DNA of 64,000 bases from a virus (lineage: Duplodnaviria > Heunggongvirae > Uroviricota > Caudoviricetes), in the IMG/VR virus record IMGVR_UViG_2675903278_000002, one strand, 5' to 3'. The notes under the pieces were generated by a model. That model was not told the origin of the DNA, did not search any database, and saw nothing but the letters and a program-made list of their open reading frames with translations. Within the stretch, counting starts at the first letter, position 1, and the number at the start of each line of letters is the position of its first letter. Made by a program: the position numbers and the translations under genes. Of the stretch, positions 27-7,956 are shown one piece after another.

Positions 27-3000
27 ATGCCACAAGCGAGTTCCATCGTTTACATCGCATTGATTGGTGGCGCTGGTTACAACGTCGGTTCCCCACATCA
101 GGCAGGCATTTCAGAACTGGTTCTACGAGCAGGCAATGGAAACCCCAAAGGAATTACCGGGGCTTTGTGGAAGCGTACAGCCGTCGGATTAACGAATTTC
201 GCCTGGATCAACACATCCGGCGATACATATGATATTTACGTTGAGATTGGCAATTATGCGACGAGTGTAAATATCCATTGGGATTGTACTGCAAATGCGA
301 CAGTTTCTATTTATACATCGCCAACATATTCAGCGAGTAAGCCTTCCAGCGTTACCGATGGTGTTGTTTATACGATGTATAGCACACATCAGAAACCGAC
401 GCCGTTAGATATTGGAGCACTGCCAACAACCGGAGGAACAGTTTCAGGTCCGTTGTCTGTTACAGGTGGATTAACTGGTTCATTGAATGGTAATGCAAGT
501 ACAGCCACGAAATTGCAGACGGCAAGAACTATCGGCGGCGTGAGCTTTGATGGTACTGCGAATATTAATTTGCCAGGTGTTAATACGACTGGTAATCAGA
601 ATACAACGGGCAACGCTGCAACCGCTACAAAACTACAGACAGCGCGTACAATCAACGGTGTTAAGTTTGATGGTTCTGCGGACATAACGCTGACTCCTGC
701 GAACCTTGACGTATACAGCAAAAGCGAAATAGACAATAAAAAAGGGATGAGAAAATACACTTTTTCAGCGCCTGCAAATGCAGTAAGCGGTAAGTGGTAT
801 CCTATAGTCTTTCGCCGATCTGGAGGCAATACCGATGAATTAGCCTCACGAGTTGTGATAACTACTTATTCCTCAGCTGGCGGATACGCCATGAATAATT
901 GTGAATTTAATGGGTTTGTTATGCCTGGCGGTTGGTCTGATCGCGGTTCATATGCGGCTGGTTTTTTCTCAATATATTCTACTGCTGAGCGAGCTATACA
1001 CTCGATTATTTCAGGTGTGAAAGATGACGATTTGTGTAGTGTATTTTACGTTGAAGCCAGAGCATTCCCTATCAAGATATTTGCTGAGGAGGGCTTGAAC
1101 GTAATTGTTCCAACGGCTGATTATGCAGTTGGTCAAACCACTTATAAGTGGGGGGCAACTGATCCTTTATCAGAAAGTACGAATGCACAGATAATTTTGG
1201 ACTTTAAAAATGGACGAGGTTATTACTGTTCACATCCATTTATTTCAAGTCTTTCAGGAAATGCTGCTACAGCAACGAAATTGCAGACTGCAAGAACTAT
1301 CGGCGGCGTGGCCTTCGATGGATCTGCGAACATAAATTTGCCTGGTGTAAACACGGCAGGTAATCAGAATACAACGGGCAACGCGGCTACTGCTACGAAG
1401 TTGCAAACAGCGAGAAACATCAATGGTGTTAAGTTTGATGGCTCAGGCGATATCAACATTAATACACTGGTATCTCGTGGCCGAGTTACGGCGTTAAGCG
1501 GCTCTACTCAAGGCACTGCTGGCATTCAAATGTATGAGGCGTACAACAATAGCTACCCGACCATGTATGGCAACGTATTGCACATGAAAGGTGCGAGTGC
1601 TTCTGGTGAGGGCGAGATGCTTGTTGGCTGGAGCGGAACGGATGGTGCTCATGCACCGGTTTATGTTCGTTCACGCCGTGATACTTCGACAGCGAACTGG
1701 TCTGGCTGGGCGCAGATCTACACAACTGCTCATAAACCCACAGCGAAAGATGTTGGGGCCGCGCAAGCGTTTAGCGCGTCTTACAGCACAGGGGCTGGCA
1801 ATTGGACTACCGCTGAATTTATCGCATGGCTGAAGGAGCGTGGTGCTTTCGAAGTGCCGTACTGGATGATGAAGGGTTCCTGGTCATATGCCGACAATAA
1901 AATTATCACTGATACAGGTGTCGGCAATATCTGTCTTGCTGGTGCGGTTATCGAGGTTTTAGGTACCGAAGGCGCAATGACCATCCGAGTTACTACGCCT
2001 ACAACGACGACCGGTGGTGGGATTGCCTGTGCTCAGTTCACCTATATTAATCACGGTAGCGCGTATGCCCCTGCCTGGCGCAGAGATTACAACACGACTC
2101 TCAAACCCACTGCGGCTGATGTCGGTGCGTTGCCGAGCGGTGGCGGCACACTTTCCGGCGCACTCACATTATCTATGGCTGCGCCAAGTGTCCAGTTACG
2201 AGGGCAAGGTACGGACACCAGACAGTACATCATGGCTTACAGAACCGATGGCGCTACATCATGGTATGTGGGCAAGGCTAACAACGGCTCCGATAATGCG
2301 ATGTTCTGGAACTATACCGGCTCCAACGGAATTGAATTGGCTGCCGATGGCAATGTGCGTATTAATGCGAAGGGTAAACAGTTTACGTTCGCAAACAATG
2401 GGAACTTAGGTCTTGTTGCTTCGTTGGATCAGAGTTCAGTTCCACAGGGTACTTACCATCAAGTAGCTCTTAACACTGGCACTGTTGGTGGTAAATCGTA
2501 CCTTCGAAAATTCCGCGGCGGCAACACAGACACCATTTGGCATGAGACGGTTCAGGGCGGCTTCCTTCGTTGGGCAACCGGCAATGCTGATGAGCAAGAA
2601 GAACTGTCTATCAGTACTGGCTATGGTGTTCGAGCAAGAGGTGAAATCACTTCCCTTAGCGCCAATGGTCTAAGAGTGGCTTACGGGAATTACGGCTTCT
2701 TTATTCGCAATGATGGCGGAACAACTTACTTCTTGCTGACTGCTTCTGGCGACAAGTTCGGAAGCTGGAATGCTTTGCGTCCAATGTACATTAACAACGC
2801 TTCAGGCGCGGTTACGATGGGGAACGGGTTGTCGCTTGCCGGTGGCTTAAATGTCACGAGCGGAAATATCCGAATCCCGACGTCGAGTACATCTTGGATC
2901 GACATGAGAAACAATGCCGCTCTGTCTAACAGTTCTGCGGTTGCCACTTCCTCTGCATCGGCCATTATTCGTCAGGAGCACGCCGATCGTCATTATTTTG

Positions 3001-3437
3001 TTGGTGGTTTAGGCAACTCTCAGTTCGGGTTCTACATGATTAACAAGTCACGAACCGCGAACGGCACGGATGCGAACGCATACCTCCAGAATGACGGTAC
3101 TTGGGTTTGCGGCGGTAATGGCAGCTTTAATGACGTTTATATCCGTTCTGACCGCCGTAGTAAGCGCAATATTCGCAAGATTGACCGGGCGCTCGACAAG
3201 CTGGAGCAGATCGAAGGTGTTCTCTACGAGATTCAGGTCTGTGGCCGTTATGAGCAGTCTGGTGGCCTCATCGCTCAGGATGTCCAGAATGTTCAACCTG
3301 AACTGGTAACGGTCGACCATAACGATCAGTCAGGAGAGCCTCGTCTGCGTCTTAACTACAACGGCGTTATCGGCATGTTGGTTGAGGCTGTCAAAGAGTT
3401 GCGCGAGGAAGTGCGCGAACTGAAGGCAAAAATGTAA
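27..3437 (+). CDS. Phage tail fiber protein with fiber repeats and C-terminal intramolecular chaperone (peptidase S74-like) domain; reading frame is open upstream to the window edge, so probably 5' partial
   Basis: 1136 aa ORF; duplicated NAATATKLQTARTIGGV(S/A)FDG(T/S)ANINLPGVNT motif typical of phage tail fiber repeats; C-terminal SDRRSKRNI ... LVEAVKELREEVRELKAKM resembles the autoproteolytic chaperone domain of endosialidase and L-shaped tail fibers; no stop codon between position 3 and the ATG at 27. Confidence 0.8.
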   Translation: MPQASSIVYIALIGGAGYNVGSPHQAGISELVLRAGNGNPKGITGALWKRTAVGLTNFAWINTSGDTYDIYVEIGNYATSVNIHWDCTANATVSIYTSPTYSASKPSSVTDGVVYTMYSTHQKPTPLDIGALPTTGGTVSGPLSVTGGLTGSLNGNASTATKLQTARTIGGVSFDGTANINLPGVNTTGNQNTTGNAATATKLQTARTINGVKFDGSADITLTPANLDVYSKSEIDNKKGMRKYTFSAPANAVSGKWYPIVFRRSGGNTDELASRVVITTYSSAGGYAMNNCEFNGFVMPGGWSDRGSYAAGFFSIYSTAERAIHSIISGVKDDDLCSVFYVEARAFPIKIFAEEGLNVIVPTADYAVGQTTYKWGATDPLSESTNAQIILDFKNGRGYYCSHPFISSLSGNAATATKLQTARTIGGVAFDGSANINLPGVNTAGNQNTTGNAATATKLQTARNINGVKFDGSGDININTLVSRGRVTALSGSTQGTAGIQMYEAYNNSYPTMYGNVLHMKGASASGEGEMLVGWSGTDGAHAPVYVRSRRDTSTANWSGWAQIYTTAHKPTAKDVGAAQAFSASYSTGAGNWTTAEFIAWLKERGAFEVPYWMMKGSWSYADNKIITDTGVGNICLAGAVIEVLGTEGAMTIRVTTPTTTTGGGIACAQFTYINHGSAYAPAWRRDYNTTLKPTAADVGALPSGGGTLSGALTLSMAAPSVQLRGQGTDTRQYIMAYRTDGATSWYVGKANNGSDNAMFWNYTGSNGIELAADGNVRINAKGKQFTFANNGNLGLVASLDQSSVPQGTYHQVALNTGTVGGKSYLRKFRGGNTDTIWHETVQGGFLRWATGNADEQEELSISTGYGVRARGEITSLSANGLRVAYGNYGFFIRNDGGTTYFLLTASGDKFGSWNALRPMYINNASGAVTMGNGLSLAGGLNVTSGNIRIPTSSTSWIDMRNNAALSNSSAVATSSASAIIRQEHADRHYFVGGLGNSQFGFYMINKSRTANGTDANAYLQNDGTWVCGGNGSFNDVYIRSDRRSKRNIRKIDRALDKLEQIEGVLYEIQVCGRYEQSGGLIAQDVQNVQPELVTVDHNDQSGEPRLRLNYNGVIGMLVEAVKELREEVRELKAKM
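481..700 (+). repeat. Copy 1 of an approx 210 bp intragenic duplication in the tail fiber gene (second copy at 1260..1470)
   Basis: Near-identical nucleotide and peptide segments encoding GNA(S/A)TATKLQTARTIGGV.FDG.ANINLPGVNT.GNQNTTGNAATATKLQTAR.INGVKFDGS. Confidence 0.7.
1260..1470 (+). repeat. Copy 2 of the tail fiber intragenic duplication
   Basis: Direct comparison with 481..700 in the sequence. Confidence 0.7.
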
Positions 3438-3503
3438 TCAAGGTGAATGGTGAGGGGCCACCCTCACCAATTCAGGATATTCACATCAAAAAGGAGATTA
3501 GAT

Positions 3504-4286
3504 GTGCCAATTGTCGGTGTTCCCGGTTGGATTGGGTCTTCGGCTGTCAGTGTGACAGGCCAGAGATGGATGAGTGCGGCTCGAACGGCGGTGCAACTGC
3601 CAGCGGCTGGTTCAATGTCTCAAATGGCCGGGCGATCTAAAGAAGTTCAGTACAGCATCGGTGCGAATCATAACTACAACAAAGACACACTGATCAACTA
3701 TTTAAAATCCCAGGGGGCGACGCCAGTCGTTGTTACCATTACAGGGGATCTGGTGTCGTCCAGTAGCGGCGTGCCATGTTTAGATTTCCCGAGTTCACTT
3801 ACCAACTCTTATATCAGCCTTGTAATCAACGCAGGTGTGACTGTCTATGGACGCGGTGGCAATGGTGGTAGTAACGCTGCCGGTGCTGCTGGTGGTAACG
3901 CAATTAATAATGGCATCGGTACACGCTTGCGTATTACGAATAATGGTGCAATCGCTGGAGGTGGTGGCGGCGGTGGCGGTGGTAACAGGGGTAAACTAAT
4001 ATTTGGTGGTGGCGGTGGTCGCCCATTCGGTGCTGGTGGGTCTTCCTCTCATATGAGTTCCGGTGCAACTGCTGGTACTATTTCCGCTCCTGGTAAAGGA
4101 TCTGTTGGTGAGGGGTCTCTTAGTGCATATACAGGCGGTTCGGGTGGTAATGTCGGTGCTGCTGGAGGAAGATGTAATACTCAAGGTAACGGTACAGAAT
4201 ATAACGGCGGGGCAGCTGGTAAAGCCGTAACTGGCAACGCGCCTACATGGACTAAAGCTGGGGCAATTTACGGCGCTCATGTGTAA
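3504..4286 (+). CDS. Glycine-rich hypothetical protein, possibly tail-fiber associated; proposed GTG start
   Basis: ORF 3447..4286; AAGGAG at 3491..3496 sits 7 nt upstream of GTG 3504; long poly-Gly tracts (GGGGGGGGGN, GGGGG); lies between tail fiber and lysis genes. Confidence 0.45.
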   Translation: MPIVGVPGWIGSSAVSVTGQRWMSAARTAVQLPAAGSMSQMAGRSKEVQYSIGANHNYNKDTLINYLKSQGATPVVVTITGDLVSSSSGVPCLDFPSSLTNSYISLVINAGVTVYGRGGNGGSNAAGAAGGNAINNGIGTRLRITNNGAIAGGGGGGGGGNRGKLIFGGGGGRPFGAGGSSSHMSSGATAGTISAPGKGSVGEGSLSAYTGGSGGNVGAAGGRCNTQGNGTEYNGGAAGKAVTGNAPTWTKAGAIYGAHV

Positions 4287-4360
4287 GTACTTACCTACCA
4301 AGTGTGGGCGTTTTATGATATAAAACCGCCATCCCGATTTGACTTTTCATGGAGGAAAAC

Positions 4361-4684
4361 ATGTCGAACGAGATGGCGGGCGTTACAACAGAGCAAGTTG
4401 AGCGTATTGCCGCGATCGTTGCTCGGGAGGTTGTTGGCAAATTAGGTAAAGAGCTACGTGAAGAAATTGGCCAGGAGGTCAATGATCAGCTGAAAACCTA
4501 CTTTGGTGATATGACCCCGGCGCAACATAGTATTCAACACTCCAATCTGGACAAACTCCTTAACCGGTTAGATTCCATCTCAAGTGGGTTCTTTGGCGGC
4601 ATTGTTTCTAAAATAACGTCGTTCATTATTACCGCACTGCTTTTGGGGTTAGCCGCGTATGGCGTAAAAAGTGGACTGCAATAA
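4361..4684 (+). CDS. Small membrane protein, holin candidate
   Basis: GGAGG RBS before ATG 4361; hydrophobic C-terminal segment ITSFIITALLLGLAAYGV; immediately upstream of the putative endolysin. Confidence 0.4.
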   Translation: MSNEMAGVTTEQVERIAAIVAREVVGKLGKELREEIGQEVNDQLKTYFGDMTPAQHSIQHSNLDKLLNRLDSISSGFFGGIVSKITSFIITALLLGLAAYGVKSGLQ

Positions 4685-4697
4685 CAGGAGATCAAGG

Positions 4698-5390
4698 ATG
4701 AAAACTCCGAGAGGCATTCGTAATAACAACCCTGGCAACCTCGACAAAGGTTCGCCGTGGCAGGGGCTAATCGACAACCCTGCCGAACCGCGCTTTTGCA
4801 CGTTTAAAGACCCTGTTTGGGGGATTCGTGCGCTGGCGGTGACTCTAATTACCTACCACGACAAACGTCGCGCAAAAGACGGCTCAAGTATCGATACCAT
4901 TCGTGAAGTTATTGAACGTTGGGCACCGCCGAATGAAAACAATACTGACGCCTACATTAATGAGGTGTCTAAAGCCGTTGGTGTAACCGCAGACATGATT
5001 ATCGATCTGCATGATTACGACATTCTTCGACCTTTGGTTGAGGCAATCATTCGCCATGAGAATGGGCGAGGTCCGCTAAAAACGCTGAACACCTGGTATG
5101 CGGCAGAAGTTATTGAGGAAGGTCTGCGTCGAGCTGGCGTTGTTAAGCCGGCGAAAACCGTGAAGGCTGTTCCTGTAACTAAAGAAACCGCAGGCGCAAC
5201 TGTTACAGCAGGTATTGGTCTGGCGCAGCTGGCCGATGTTATGCCGCAGGTTTCCGCTGCTATGGATAAAGCACAAGGTCATATCTCTAGCGGGGATACA
5301 GTACGCATCATCTTCGGTATTGCCACTATTGTTGTGGCAGGATTCATTGCCTGGTCGCAGGTAAGAAAACACCAGAAAGGGATGGTCTAA
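4698..5390 (+). CDS. Putative endolysin or peptidoglycan hydrolase (family not assigned)
   Basis: AGGAG RBS before ATG 4698; N-terminal GIRNNNPGNL motif; gene order small membrane protein - this gene - i-spanin - o-spanin matches a canonical lysis cassette; C-terminal hydrophobic segment is atypical. Confidence 0.45.
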   Translation: MKTPRGIRNNNPGNLDKGSPWQGLIDNPAEPRFCTFKDPVWGIRALAVTLITYHDKRRAKDGSSIDTIREVIERWAPPNENNTDAYINEVSKAVGVTADMIIDLHDYDILRPLVEAIIRHENGRGPLKTLNTWYAAEVIEEGLRRAGVVKPAKTVKAVPVTKETAGATVTAGIGLAQLADVMPQVSAAMDKAQGHISSGDTVRIIFGIATIVVAGFIAWSQVRKHQKGMV

Positions 5391-5391
5391 T

Positions 5392-5643
5392 ATGCTAGGC
5401 AGCCTGATGACAAAGCTAAAAGTTGCTTTGATTACGCTGGCTGCCGTTCTTTTCGTTCTTGTCGGCGCTTACACGATGGGCGGGAATGCGGCGCGACGAG
5501 CAATGGAAGAGAAGGCAAAACAGGAAGACAGAAAACGACTTCAAAACACAGTGAAAGTGGTGAATGAGACGAGCAGTAAAATACGTCAGAAAGATGCTTC
5601 TGCCGTTCATCGTGAGTTGTATGATAAGTGGGTGCGTCATTAA
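5392..5643 (+). CDS. i-spanin (Rz-like inner membrane spanin subunit)
   Basis: N-terminal transmembrane helix LKVALITLAAVLFVLVGAY followed by a charged coiled-coil-like region; start overlaps the upstream stop; contains the o-spanin gene in another frame. Confidence 0.6.
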   Translation: MLGSLMTKLKVALITLAAVLFVLVGAYTMGGNAARRAMEEKAKQEDRKRLQNTVKVVNETSSKIRQKDASAVHRELYDKWVRH

Positions 5644-5779
5644 ACCACAAACAGCCAGCGTGTTGTTCTGCGATGGGGCTGAGCCTATCTATATCAGCAA
5701 TAATGATGTAATGACTGAAGAAACCGAACGCCAAATCCTTTTTCACAATACGATGGGAGAGAGGGTTTGTGGTTGGTGA
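5594..5779 (+). CDS. o-spanin (Rz1-like outer membrane lipoprotein), overlapping the 3' end of the i-spanin gene
   Basis: MLLPFIVSCMISGC signal peptide with lipobox cysteine; out-of-frame overlap with 5392..5643, the classic Rz/Rz1 arrangement. Confidence 0.55.
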   Translation: MLLPFIVSCMISGCVIKPQTASVLFCDGAEPIYISNNDVMTEETERQILFHNTMGERVCGW

Positions 5780-5811
5780 TGTCGAAGTTCCCCTCAAATG
5801 AGGGGAACACA

Positions 5812-6333
5812 TTATTCTTCGAACAATTTTTCGATAGATTTTGTAGGATAGAACAAAGAACGCTCGTTGTTACCAACCAGCTGGATAAAGCCTAAACTTT
5901 TATAAAACGCCTTGGCTTTGTCATTTAACGCCTCAACGAAAAGTCCATGAATGCCTACAGCAAGAGATGCATTGTACACAACGCGCATTGCATGTGTTAC
6001 AAGCATTGAGCCAAATCCTTGACCTTGAAGGGACTTGTCCAAAGCCAGCCTACCCAAAGTAACACTTGGAACATTCCGATAAGGAACCTTCTTTTGTTTG
6101 CTTCTTGAAGGTAAGGACTCCTTTTCAAAACAACTACCTGACAAAGTGTAATATCCTAACACTTTTGGCCTTTCTTCTTGAGTGCAAAGCACATAAGCAC
6201 GAAGAATTTTTCCCTCATGCTGCCTTTTTAAGTGGTTGGCTAAAAAGGCGTTTAGTGACTCTTCGCCGCAATCAAAACCGTTTAGATCATAATCTTTCTC
6301 TCCAGAGAAAATCTCTATCGTTGTATTGCTCAC
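5812..6333 (-). CDS. GNAT-family N-acetyltransferase toxin (TacT-like)
   Basis: 173 aa; acetyltransferase-like core (QGQGFGSMLV, FY motif); directly downstream of and co-oriented with a DUF1778-like antitoxin gene. Confidence 0.7.
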   Translation of the reverse strand: MSNTTIEIFSGEKDYDLNGFDCGEESLNAFLANHLKRQHEGKILRAYVLCTQEERPKVLGYYTLSGSCFEKESLPSRSKQKKVPYRNVPSVTLGRLALDKSLQGQGFGSMLVTHAMRVVYNASLAVGIHGLFVEALNDKAKAFYKSLGFIQLVGNNERSLFYPTKSIEKLFEE

Positions 6334-6340
6334 GAGTAAA

Positions 6341-6610
6341 CTACTCCATGCTTTTCAGACGATCAGCAGCTCGTTTCAGCTTGTCGTTCGGTGCCGGAGG
6401 ATTGCTTATAGCGTCCATAACCAGATTCCAGGATTCTTCATTCAGAACTAGTCTACGGTGTTGCTCTATAACTTTCACGGCACGTTCAGATGCACTGCTA
6501 ACCATAAACTGAGTAATGCTCTGGTTAGACATTGCGGCAGCTTCCTCGATGATGCTTTTATCGTCATCGGTTAATCTCAAATCGATGCGCTGCTTTTTTA
6601 GTGCTGACAT
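6341..6610 (-). CDS. DUF1778 (TacA-like) ribbon-helix-helix antitoxin
   Basis: MSALKKQRIDLRLTDDDKSIIEEAAA... matches DUF1778 antitoxins; GGAGG RBS before the ATG at 6610; 7 nt gap to the toxin gene. Confidence 0.7.
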   Translation of the reverse strand: MSALKKQRIDLRLTDDDKSIIEEAAAMSNQSITQFMVSSASERAVKVIEQHRRLVLNEESWNLVMDAISNPPAPNDKLKRAADRLKSME

Positions 6611-6928
6611 GTATTCCTCCTGATGGCCGTGATGTAGGAAGGCCATCAATCTCCTCTGTTCAAACTGAGTTTTCGACTCAAAAATTACTTTAAAAGGCTA
6701 TAGCCCATTACGTGTGCATTATCAAATTGTGTACGGCATATCACCGTACTTGTAATATAGAGGTCATTGTTACTTTTTTCAACAGACAAATACAAGCTAT
6801 GATTGCCAATTGTTAATCACAACCTACCATTTAACCTTTACACCGCAGCCGTAGGCATTTAGGCTATATCACATATAAGAAAACAAGTTGTTTCAGACGA
6901 TAATTATATACGCAAAGGGAACTCTCCA

Positions 6929-7597
6929 ATGACCAAGATCTTTGTGGTTGGCGGCACAAAGGGCGGGCCTGGCAAATCCACCGTTGCCCAGCAAATTGCC
7001 GTTTGCCTGAAAGTCAAAAAGAAGAAGAAGGTTTATATTACCGATATAGATATTCAGCGCACGACAACGAGCTGGTGTGAAGACCGTCGACAGAACGAAG
7101 ACCTTGAGCTGATTCCTTTTGCATACGTTCAGGATGACATCATTAAGCACCTAAAATCGCTTCAGGGTAGAGCTGAGTTTGTAGTGGTAGATGCTGGTGG
7201 CTTCGACTCCGAAATTCAGCGACAAGCGATGCTGATGGCTGACGTTATCATTATCCCGCTGCGTCCTAAGCGTCGTGATTTGAAATCTTTACGTGACATC
7301 GATCCTATTATCGACAATGTTCGCAATGTAAACGATAAAGTGAAGGTCCGCGCGGTCATGAACCAGTGCCCGGCTTTGCCATCACAAGTGTCTCGCATTC
7401 TGGCGGCTAAAGAGATTGTTGAGACGTTTGGAATCGAGTCTGCGCCAGTCAATCTATATAACCGCAACGTCTATGATGATGCGGAAGAGTCTGGTCGTTC
7501 TATCTTTGAAATGACCGGTAGCGAGCGCGACAAAAAGGCGGAAGCCGAGTTTGAAGAATTTGTAGATTATCTGTTGAGTCTGGAGGAAGAAGAATAA
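6929..7597 (+). CDS. parA: ParA-family partition ATPase (small type Ib)
   Basis: Deviant Walker A GGTKGGPGKST; 222 aa; followed by a small RHH protein gene. Confidence 0.85.
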   Translation: MTKIFVVGGTKGGPGKSTVAQQIAVCLKVKKKKKVYITDIDIQRTTTSWCEDRRQNEDLELIPFAYVQDDIIKHLKSLQGRAEFVVVDAGGFDSEIQRQAMLMADVIIIPLRPKRRDLKSLRDIDPIIDNVRNVNDKVKVRAVMNQCPALPSQVSRILAAKEIVETFGIESAPVNLYNRNVYDDAEESGRSIFEMTGSERDKKAEAEFEEFVDYLLSLEEEE

Positions 7598-7956
7598 TGT
7601 CCATGAAAATGGGTGACCTAGCAAAGCGCAAAGAGCCTGATGCACCGGCTAAGAACACAACTCCTTTGCGCCAACCAGTCAGACCACAGGGACGCCCGAC
7701 TCGTGGCAAAGAGAAAATTAAAAGCCGCACAATGTCACTGGAGGACGAATACTTCGAACTGCTGGAGATGATGAAGTTCATCCCTCGCTTCGAGAAGTTC
7801 ACTCGTTCTGACGTGATTCGAGCAGCCATTTTCCATCTGGCAGAGAAGTCACCGCAGGAAATCGAGGACATCGTGAAATTGAATGAGGCGATCACCGCTG
7901 CCGATGTCACGATGCGTACCGATGAAATTAAACGCGAGTTGATGAAGAAAGGGTGA
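7597..7956 (+). CDS. Partition centromere-binding protein (ParG/ParB-like, ribbon-helix-helix)
   Basis: Start overlaps parA stop; basic disordered N-terminus plus C-terminal RHH-like segment MSLEDEYFELLEMM...RSDVIRAAIFHLAE. Confidence 0.5.
   Translation: MSMKMGDLAKRKEPDAPAKNTTPLRQPVRPQGRPTRGKEKIKSRTMSLEDEYFELLEMMKFIPRFEKFTRSDVIRAAIFHLAEKSPQEIEDIVKLNEAITAADVTMRTDEIKRELMKKG

Follow-up and report, generated by a model that had tools for sequence, protein, structure and literature searches.

We find that positions 4361-5779 of a 64,000-nucleotide stretch of viral DNA (IMG/VR record IMGVR_UViG_2675903278_000002; hereafter the window) very probably constitute the late lysis cassette of an SSU5-like Escherichia coli phage-plasmid. 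The cassette carries a holin candidate or lysis regulator (gene 1), an endolysin of the Enc34/M4Lys type (gene 2) and a pair of spanins (genes 3 and 4). The mechanism that we propose with it, at the same high level of confidence, begins with the glycosidase domain of the endolysin, which probably builds up, harmlessly tethered, at the inner membrane on its cytoplasmic side. At a programmed time the gene 1 product, in concert with or by acting on the membrane module of the endolysin itself, would permeabilise or depolarise this membrane. The enzyme domain would thereby gain access to the murein and cut its glycan strands, and the spanin complex would finally disrupt the outer membrane. Gene 1 might make the holes itself, or might instead time hole formation by the endolysin module. 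The enzyme and spanin identities draw on strong sequence homology to characterised proteins, and the topology and the trigger are what we infer.

The four genes are co-directional and tightly packed, with 13 nt separating gene 1 from the endolysin gene and 1 nt separating the endolysin stop from the i-spanin start. Their coordinates are given below with their best PHROG families; the Shine-Dalgarno sequences were read off the DNA.

4351..4355, + strand: Shine-Dalgarno sequence GGAGG, 5 nt 5' of the ATG at 4361
4361..4684, + strand: gene 1, holin candidate or lysis regulator, 107 amino acids (aa); phrog_5093, E=2e-68
4686..4690, + strand: Shine-Dalgarno sequence AGGAG, 7 nt 5' of the endolysin ATG
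4698..5390, + strand: gene 2, Enc34/M4Lys-type endolysin, 230 aa; phrog_873 'endolysin', E=5e-87
5392..5643, + strand: gene 3, Rz-like i-spanin, 83 aa; phrog_1026 'Rz-like spanin', E=7e-25
5564..5779, + strand: gene 4, Rz1-like lipoprotein (o-spanin), precursor of 71 aa; phrog_1275 'Rz-like spanin', E=1.3e-24

All four products thus match phage protein families, with E values from 1e-24 to 5e-87, and the gene set is not a product of chance. The gene order is kept in every one of 80 related IMG/VR loci, and the cassette DNA is 97.8% identical to the Holin/Endolysin/Rz/Rz1 genes of Escherichia phage Cyrano (OV696614). These results bear out the initial annotation of the window, which had proposed a lysis cassette of this extent and gene order. 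A sigma-70 scan upstream of the cassette found no promoter. Salmonella phage SSU5 (NC_018843) is 82% identical to the cassette DNA, positions 3400-7700 of the window match E. coli plasmids 106-112 kb in size at 99% identity, and positions 40000-64000 are collinear with Cyrano at 98.9% identity. Judged from these identities and this collinearity, the window is therefore part of an SSU5-like phage-plasmid of E. coli.

In both the gene 1 product and the endolysin, the sole strongly hydrophobic 19-residue window is C-terminal (residues 81-99 and 204-222, respectively; Kyte-Doolittle values of ∼2.0-2.1), and hydropathy analysis reveals neither an N-terminal signal nor a signal-arrest-release (SAR) segment in either protein. 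The initial annotation had remarked on this C-terminal placement, correctly, and had suspected from it an endolysin of unusual type while leaving the enzyme family open. The suspicion proves justified by the Enc34/M4Lys architecture of the protein, and the family can now be named.

The endolysin, whose N-terminus reads MKTPRGIRNNNPGNL, yielded no match above cut-off in Pfam and NCBIfam scans, and was recognised instead through a sequence search of the PDB and through PHROGs. Phmmer matches residues 3-152 to PDB entry 7Q47_A, 'Endolysin' (E=6.6e-54), which is the catalytic domain of Hafnia phage Enc34 ORF39 (PMC8943055). This domain is all-helical, belongs to the NCBI CDD family PHA02564, and is a distant relative of the alpha-lobe of GH73/GH23 lysozyme-fold enzymes. 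Enc34 ORF39 has a catalytic Glu131, conserved Trp79 and Tyr95, and a C-terminal two-helix membrane domain, and it is active on outer-membrane-permeabilised cells of E. coli, P. aeruginosa and H. alvei (PMC8943055). Residues E121, W75 and Y86 of the window endolysin align with Glu131, Trp79 and Tyr95 of the Enc34 enzyme, and all three are invariant in 38 full-length homologs that are 56-89% identical. An AlphaFold2 (AF2) model derived from the 38-homolog alignment consists of helices only, with predicted local distance difference test (pLDDT) scores of 80-96 for residues ∼21-150. When this model was submitted to Foldseek, the top matches were 7q47_B and 7q47_A (E=8.6e-16; target template-modelling (TM) scores of 0.80 and 0.75), which made 7Q47 the sole strong match, and the E1004 core protein ranked next.

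The full-length protein has a second characterised homolog in M4Lys of Salmonella phage BSPM4, with which it shares 56% identity over 236 columns that include the membrane region (blastp, E=5e-92). M4Lys has been reported to degrade purified peptidoglycan and to remove GlcNAc from muropeptides, indicating N-acetylglucosaminidase activity; the full-length protein alone lyses E. coli in an azide-insensitive manner, and truncation of its membrane domain abolishes lysis (PMC7143992). By homology, we assign the 4698-5390 product as a peptidoglycan glycosidase of the Enc34/M4Lys type (PHA02564), with Glu121 as the predicted catalytic residue and Trp75 and Tyr86 as putative substrate-positioning residues. 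By analogy with M4Lys and Enc34 ORF39, for which these activities are published, the window endolysin would degrade peptidoglycan and cause lysis that depends on its transmembrane domain (TMD).

The catalytic domain is found in 793 records of the phage collection, and 182 of these span 80% or more of the query. The remaining records include stand-alone endolysins (phage 9g), and internal virion, tape-measure and 'tail injection transglycosylase' proteins. Phmmer also matches the domain to the N-terminus of Gp29 of phage E1004, a core protein of 1295 residues (9vvp, E=3.3e-21), and the domain is likewise N-terminal in the 'internal virion protein' of SP6/K1-5-like phages and in the 'tail injection transglycosylase' of the P1-like phage D6. 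One fold, encoded here by positions 4698-5150, thus serves cell entry in some phages and cell exit in others.

This distribution bears on a scenario raised in the initial annotation, in which positions 4698-5390 code for a virion or structural protein, the true endolysin being encoded elsewhere. The domain does carry the name 'virion protein' (PHA02564) and the PHROG category 'head and packaging', and it recurs in the core and ejection (9vvp Gp29), tape-measure, head and 'tail injection transglycosylase' families. Nonetheless, the full-length architecture that includes the membrane module occurs only in proteins encoded between holin-like and spanin genes, and homologs have demonstrated muralytic and lytic activity (PMC7143992, PMC8943055). 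Because the annotation of the near-identical Cyrano, which comprises 126 features, includes no other endolysin, the scenario does not hold, and we regard its probability as close to negligible.

The layout of the window endolysin comprises the catalytic domain (residues ∼1-152), a conserved linker (PVTKET), a first helix (∼164-186), an acidic loop, a membrane helix (∼203-221) and a basic tail. Within the C-terminal module, eleven positions do not vary among the 38 homologs: P159, T161, E163, A167, G174, Q177, P183, A188, S198, A218 and Q221. The helix at 203-221 is strongly hydrophobic (Kyte-Doolittle 2.07), and helix 1 is weakly so, with Gly, Ala, Ser and Thr making up 53% of its residues. 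The mean numbers of charged residues per homolog are distributed as follows.

18 residues before helix 1: K+R 3.55, D+E 1.39 (basic)
Helix 1 (164-186): K+R almost none, D+E 1.00
Loop between the module helices: K+R 0.74, D+E 2.13 (acidic)
Tail after the last helix: K+R 2.53, D+E 0.24 (basic)

Under the positive-inside rule, this charge pattern favours a hairpin of N-in/C-in topology, in which the enzyme domain is cytoplasmic, in agreement with the N-in/C-in prediction made for phage Siskin, in which a C-terminal membrane domain of this kind was first pointed out (PMC6498227). Given this pattern and the lack of an export signal, the enzyme domain is probably tethered at the cytoplasmic face of the inner membrane.

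The authors of the M4Lys study predicted the opposite topology, N-out/C-in, from the basic tail (PMC7143992). If it applied here, the enzyme might be exported and held inactive by its last helix, with gene 1 acting as a pinholin that releases it through depolarisation. The authors of the Enc34 study have raised a tether-and-release analogy (PMC8943055), and a 'C-terminal SAR endolysin' model has been proposed for LysAP of phage AP1, an unrelated GH24 enzyme. Conversely, the window endolysin has no N-terminal signal or SAR segment: its best N-terminal window in a test for SAR endolysins, residues 33-51, forms a core helix whose summed Hessa value is +9.6, and an N-terminal hydrophobic segment is absent. 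Moreover, no known pathway exports an N-terminal domain of 200 residues by means of a C-terminal signal (PMC8943055), lysis by M4Lys is not blocked by azide (PMC7143992), and both the basic stretch that precedes helix 1 (K+R 3.55) and the acidic loop favour N-in. We consider this N-out arrangement unlikely, and, given the charge pattern and the absent export signal, less likely than a hole-forming role for the module, which is weighed below.

With its counterpart in chi-like phages the module shares 53-54% identity. The possibility that it is a fused copy of a neighbouring holin was rejected at the sequence level, as hhalign probabilities did not exceed 2.2% against any of the targets (9g gp47 (holin), 9g gp48, two-TMD proteins of the loci L088 and L090, the L089 membrane protein and BSPM4 ORF_37). 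Tblastn locates the module in 169 phage records, and in all rows inspected it lies within an Enc34/M4Lys-type endolysin; these rows provide no evidence that the module is transferable between catalytic domains.

The product of gene 1 has an acidic, helical N-terminal part of ∼80 aa, followed by one membrane helix (∼81-101) and a tail of 5-6 residues (VKSGLQ). Its start (MSNE...) is kept in 12 homologs, and an upstream ATG at 4349 is not preceded by a Shine-Dalgarno sequence. A conserved dual start was not found, as the second Met (MSNEM) is not conserved among these 12 sequences. Because the long, charged N-terminal part carries no signal, the protein is likely tail-anchored with an N-in/C-out topology. 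Gene 1 has the generic features of a holin gene, in that its product is small (107 aa), contains one membrane helix, and is encoded 13 nt upstream of an endolysin gene. It is named 'Holin' in Cyrano (99% protein identity) and 'putative holin' in SSU5 (95%), in both cases by position only. PHROG labels phrog_5093 'unknown function', and the reservation of the initial annotation concerning holin topology therefore stands. Homology to the chi-type 'holin' (BSPM4 ORF_37) was considered and rejected (blastp E=17).

The phage collection holds 12 records of gene 1, all SSU5-like, and no full-length match in an index of 5.8 billion proteins falls below 63% identity. When 1.84 billion representatives were searched with a profile, 56 relatives were recovered, mostly 94-143 aa in length together with some shorter fragments. 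All 42 sequences that were aligned match phrog_5093, and neither gene 1 nor its 41 relatives match Pfam or NCBIfam above cut-off. The family shares the motif FGdMtxxxHxxQHxRxxxLLxxxD, in which G49, H56 and H60 are invariant. D71 is near-invariant, and these four residues lie directly upstream of the membrane helix. The His-x3-His pair, which falls in a predicted helix, could be a metal or pH sensor. Each relative has one C-terminal membrane helix followed by 5-18 residues, with no second hydrophobic window. An AF2 model of gene 1 from the 12-sequence alignment was unusable (mean pLDDT 46.7), hence no fold search was made.

The genomic context of this family was followed through sub-alignment searches in viral contigs and look-ups of exact sequences. 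In all 80 SSU5-like IMG/VR loci, the gene 1 homolog lies directly upstream of an Enc34-type endolysin gene. More distant members of the family, which are 25-40% identical, are found in other settings. In five contigs (L087, L090, L094, L095 and L096) the homolog is followed by a Peptidase_M15_3 endolysin and, where the contig continues, by a small two-TMD protein and spanin-like genes; L088 has a weak M15_3 match in the same place (E=0.0024, under the Pfam cut-off) and then a like layout. In L098 the homolog is followed by a phrog_8226 'holin' and a phrog_669 endolysin, and in L097 by a further Enc34-type protein with overlapped spanins. Soluble endolysins are thus accompanied by a small additional multi-TMD protein, whereas cassettes with an Enc34-type enzyme, which has its own membrane module, contain none.

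Members of phrog_5093 come first in cassettes with three unrelated types of endolysin, and this supports, from gene neighbourhood, a role for gene 1 in lysis, though it does not thereby show hole formation. The context fits gene 1 either as a holin or as a holin partner or regulator. It is very unlikely that gene 1 is unconnected with lysis and encodes a membrane protein of another kind, such as one associated with tail fibres or with exclusion, lying between the tail and lysis modules. Gene 1 always follows tail-fibre or adhesin genes, phrog_5093 has no functional annotation, and one distant member (L099) has no adjoining endolysin gene in its 2.3-kb contig. Against this, gene 1 is tightly coupled to the endolysin gene by the 13-nt gap, its homologs stand immediately upstream of the three endolysin types in otherwise unrelated contigs, and in SSU5 three genes part it from the tail-fibre genes while the endolysin gene still adjoins.

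Two further features of these contigs were observed. In L087, L088, L090 and L095, the protein encoded 3' of the M15 endolysin gene is a two-helix membrane protein of 72-113 aa with the motif (A/T)IGPxNxxIxxxWFxER; its sole match is a weak one to phrog_6637 (unknown function), and it is a candidate holin or antiholin. In L097 (Logan SRR30563942 contig), positions 3368-4063 encode an Enc34-type homolog that is 40% identical to the window endolysin and of equal length, within a complete homologous cassette. This homolog has lost the catalytic Trp, Tyr and Glu (ERWAPP to CEYRNL, DAY to NRQ, and RHEN to VMYN), and its C-terminal membrane module is well conserved. Judged from these replacements, it may be a catalytically dead enzyme that is kept for its membrane module.

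Several observations weigh against the mechanism that we propose. As for the topology, the authors of the M4Lys study arrived at the opposite orientation, helix 1 alone is too polar for insertion (summed Hessa ∼+8 kcal/mol), and AF2 confidence is below 50 for residues 159-198. As for gene 1, its product matches no curated holin family in PHROG, Pfam or NCBIfam, it has neither the charged C-terminal tail typical of holins nor a conserved dual start, and the literature searched yielded no experimental work on phrog_5093 proteins or on this cassette. The recognised holin-type gene beside the gene 1 homolog of L098 fits an accessory role as well. Finally, the chi-type 'holin' ORF_37, which is not homologous to gene 1, neither lysed cells nor rescued truncated M4Lys (PMC7143992). 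Given this result, and lysis by overexpressed M4Lys alone, a separate holin may not be required.

It is thus possible, although we hold it to be clearly less probable than the proposed mechanism, that the endolysin is self-contained, with its C-terminal two-helix module forming the holes and gene 1 serving as an antiholin-like timer. M4Lys, at 56% identity, lyses E. coli by itself, its TMD is essential for this activity, and the TMD alone is bacteriostatic (PMC7143992). In its N-in/C-in arrangement of two helices, the first of them weakly hydrophobic, the module is laid out like class II holins, and its invariant polar residues E163, Q177 and Q221 would be needless in a plain anchor. The confinement of the extra multi-TMD protein to cassettes with soluble endolysins and the retention of the module in the L097 homolog without Trp, Tyr and Glu point in the same direction. 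However, holin-independent lysis has been seen only under overexpression from a T7 promoter, and the Enc34 authors warn of a possible artefact (PMC8943055). In addition, the module has no detectable sequence similarity to neighbouring holins or two-TMD proteins, and the inspected rows did not reveal it apart from an Enc34-type catalytic domain.

A broader reading, which we offer as a tentative proposal and with slightly less confidence than the self-contained endolysin, is that phrog_5093 represents an undescribed class of lysis-timing proteins, which would be tail-anchored and have an acidic helical domain on the cytoplasmic side together with the invariant G...H-x3-H motif. Its partner would be a two-helix protein that is free-standing where the endolysin is soluble (M15 or transglycosylase) and fused to the enzyme in Enc34/SSU5 cassettes. 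The window endolysin would then be a natural endolysin-holin fusion, and gene 1 its regulator.

The last two genes of the cassette are assigned, by homology and by features of their sequences, as a two-component spanin. The i-spanin, the inner-membrane component, has an N-terminal membrane helix (∼9-29; Kyte-Doolittle 2.38) and a charged periplasmic part of 54 residues, and is free of cysteine. The o-spanin has a signal peptide and a lipobox, MRRAVKYVRKMLLPFIVSCMISG followed by C, that is, I-S-G-C (Cys24), with Val and not Asp at position +2, in keeping with a lipoprotein sorted to the outer membrane. The mature o-spanin of 48 aa contains two conserved periplasmic cysteines (C36 and C69), and the lipobox and both of these cysteines are kept across the compared variants of related loci.

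The o-spanin gene is read in the +1 frame relative to the i-spanin gene, shares 80 nt with it, and extends 136 nt past the i-spanin stop (5643). The shared 80 nt encode essentially only the o-spanin signal peptide and lipobox. This is the overlapped architecture as defined by Kongari et al. 2018 (PMC6139136), of the kind known from P2 and Chi, and it is present in 69 of 77 related loci; in the other 8, the lipobox pattern found no lipobox. The out-of-frame overlap described in the initial annotation is thus correct, but its placement of the o-spanin gene inside the i-spanin gene is not: an embedded (lambda Rz/Rz1) architecture was rejected, as the o-spanin stop at 5779 lies 136 nt beyond that of the i-spanin. 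Compared with their BSPM4 counterparts, the o-spanin shows 40% identity (E=9e-19) and the i-spanin 24% (E=3.7e-5); SSU5 is listed in the Chi o-spanin family and not in the Chi i-spanin family (PMC6139136).

Annotation of spanins varies among related records. In Cyrano, 'Rz1' (OV696614 CYRAN_25) is a separated open reading frame (ORF) of 39 aa that corresponds to window positions 5660-5779, and because its start lies downstream of the lipobox Cys24 this annotation looks mis-called. In BSPM4, a hypothetical ORF on the opposite strand (KY620117 BSPM4_0039) is annotated across the spanin region, and the spanins are unannotated.

The following features lie 3' of the cassette.

5787..5808, no strand assigned: G+C-rich hairpin of 9 pairs, between the convergent o-spanin and GNAT toxin genes
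5812-6333, - strand: GNAT acetyltransferase toxin (TacT/KacT-like), convergent with the lysis cassette
6341-6649, - strand: TacA-type DUF1778 antitoxin (PF08681, E=8.6e-26), convergent with the lysis cassette
6929-7597: ParA-like ATPase gene, beyond the antitoxin gene

The hairpin is likely the terminator of the cassette. We base this on its position only, because the number of terminator-like sites in the region (2) is not above the 1.6 expected after shuffling. The hairpin is common to the lysis cassette and the toxin/antitoxin pair, and plasmid-maintenance genes (toxin, antitoxin and ParA-like) directly adjoin the lysis genes. On the 5' side, a long tail-fibre gene (27-3437) is followed by a gene for a T-even-type Gp38 adhesin (3447-4286; PF05268, E=4.7e-70) that contains stretches of poly-glycine. 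Only from window position 4316 onwards does the DNA match that of Cyrano, in which one longer, P1 S-like fibre and no gp38 are annotated. From this boundary and the differing fibre and adhesin genes, the host-range module seems to have been exchanged between elements that are otherwise nearly identical.

The cassette itself is already known, given that it is annotated in public phage records, that its type of endolysin has a crystal structure and biochemistry, and that its spanin family has been catalogued. Its description is of use for routine annotation, as it names four genes that the NCBI pipeline leaves as 'hypothetical', 'membrane protein' or uncalled across hundreds of SSU5-like plasmids from E. 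coli, Klebsiella and Salmonella. In the SSU5-like plasmid NZ_CP073971, for example, the Prokaryotic Genome Annotation Pipeline (PGAP) gives 'hypothetical protein', 'membrane protein' (the endolysin) and 'hypothetical protein', and the o-spanin is uncalled. A question common to the Enc34 and M4Lys work is the route by which a cytoplasmically made, C-terminally anchored glycosidase reaches the murein. The SSU5-type cassette supplies a second, unrelated partner protein for an Enc34-type enzyme. As the family of this partner also occurs with soluble endolysins, a small cloning set could separate 'holin' from 'regulator'.

Among known systems, the cassettes of Cyrano and SSU5 have the same four genes in the same order. 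That of SSU5 differs in having three extra genes (for an outer membrane protein, a membrane-associated protein and Cor) upstream of the holin candidate, and Cyrano differs in its upstream tail-fibre/adhesin module. The window endolysin is 58-59% identical to Enc34 ORF39 in the catalytic domain and 56% identical to M4Lys. It shares with both the Glu/Trp/Tyr set, the C-terminal two-helix module and a position upstream of overlapped spanin genes, whereas the phages that carry Enc34 ORF39, M4Lys and the Siskin enzyme are chi-like Casjensviridae and relatives. The 'holin' ORF_37 of BSPM4 (112 aa) is unrelated to gene 1, with its membrane helix at the N-terminus and not at the C-terminus.

The holin T of phage T4 is a class III holin with a single TMD and an N-in/C-out topology, whose cytoplasmic N-terminus is short and whose periplasmic domain is large. 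The gene 1 product resembles it in having one membrane helix and an N-terminus that probably lies inside. It differs in that its bulk (∼80 aa) precedes the helix and 5-6 residues follow, and sequence similarity between the two was not found. With the Chi-family spanins (Kongari et al. 2018), the o-spanin shares the overlapped architecture and 40% identity to the BSPM4 protein, whereas the i-spanin of the window (83 aa, no cysteine) is weakly similar (24%). The cysteine pattern, none in the i-spanin and two in the o-spanin, is that of the T4 spanins (PMC6139136). Finally, SAR endolysins (P1 Lyz and R21 of phage 21), which act with pinholins, are likewise membrane-tethered muralytic enzymes. In the window endolysin, by comparison, the hydrophobic segment is C-terminal, there is no Sec-type signal, and the charges favour a cytoplasmic enzyme domain. 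Nonetheless, its homologs resemble SAR endolysins in a further respect, as holin-independent lysis on overexpression has been reported for them.

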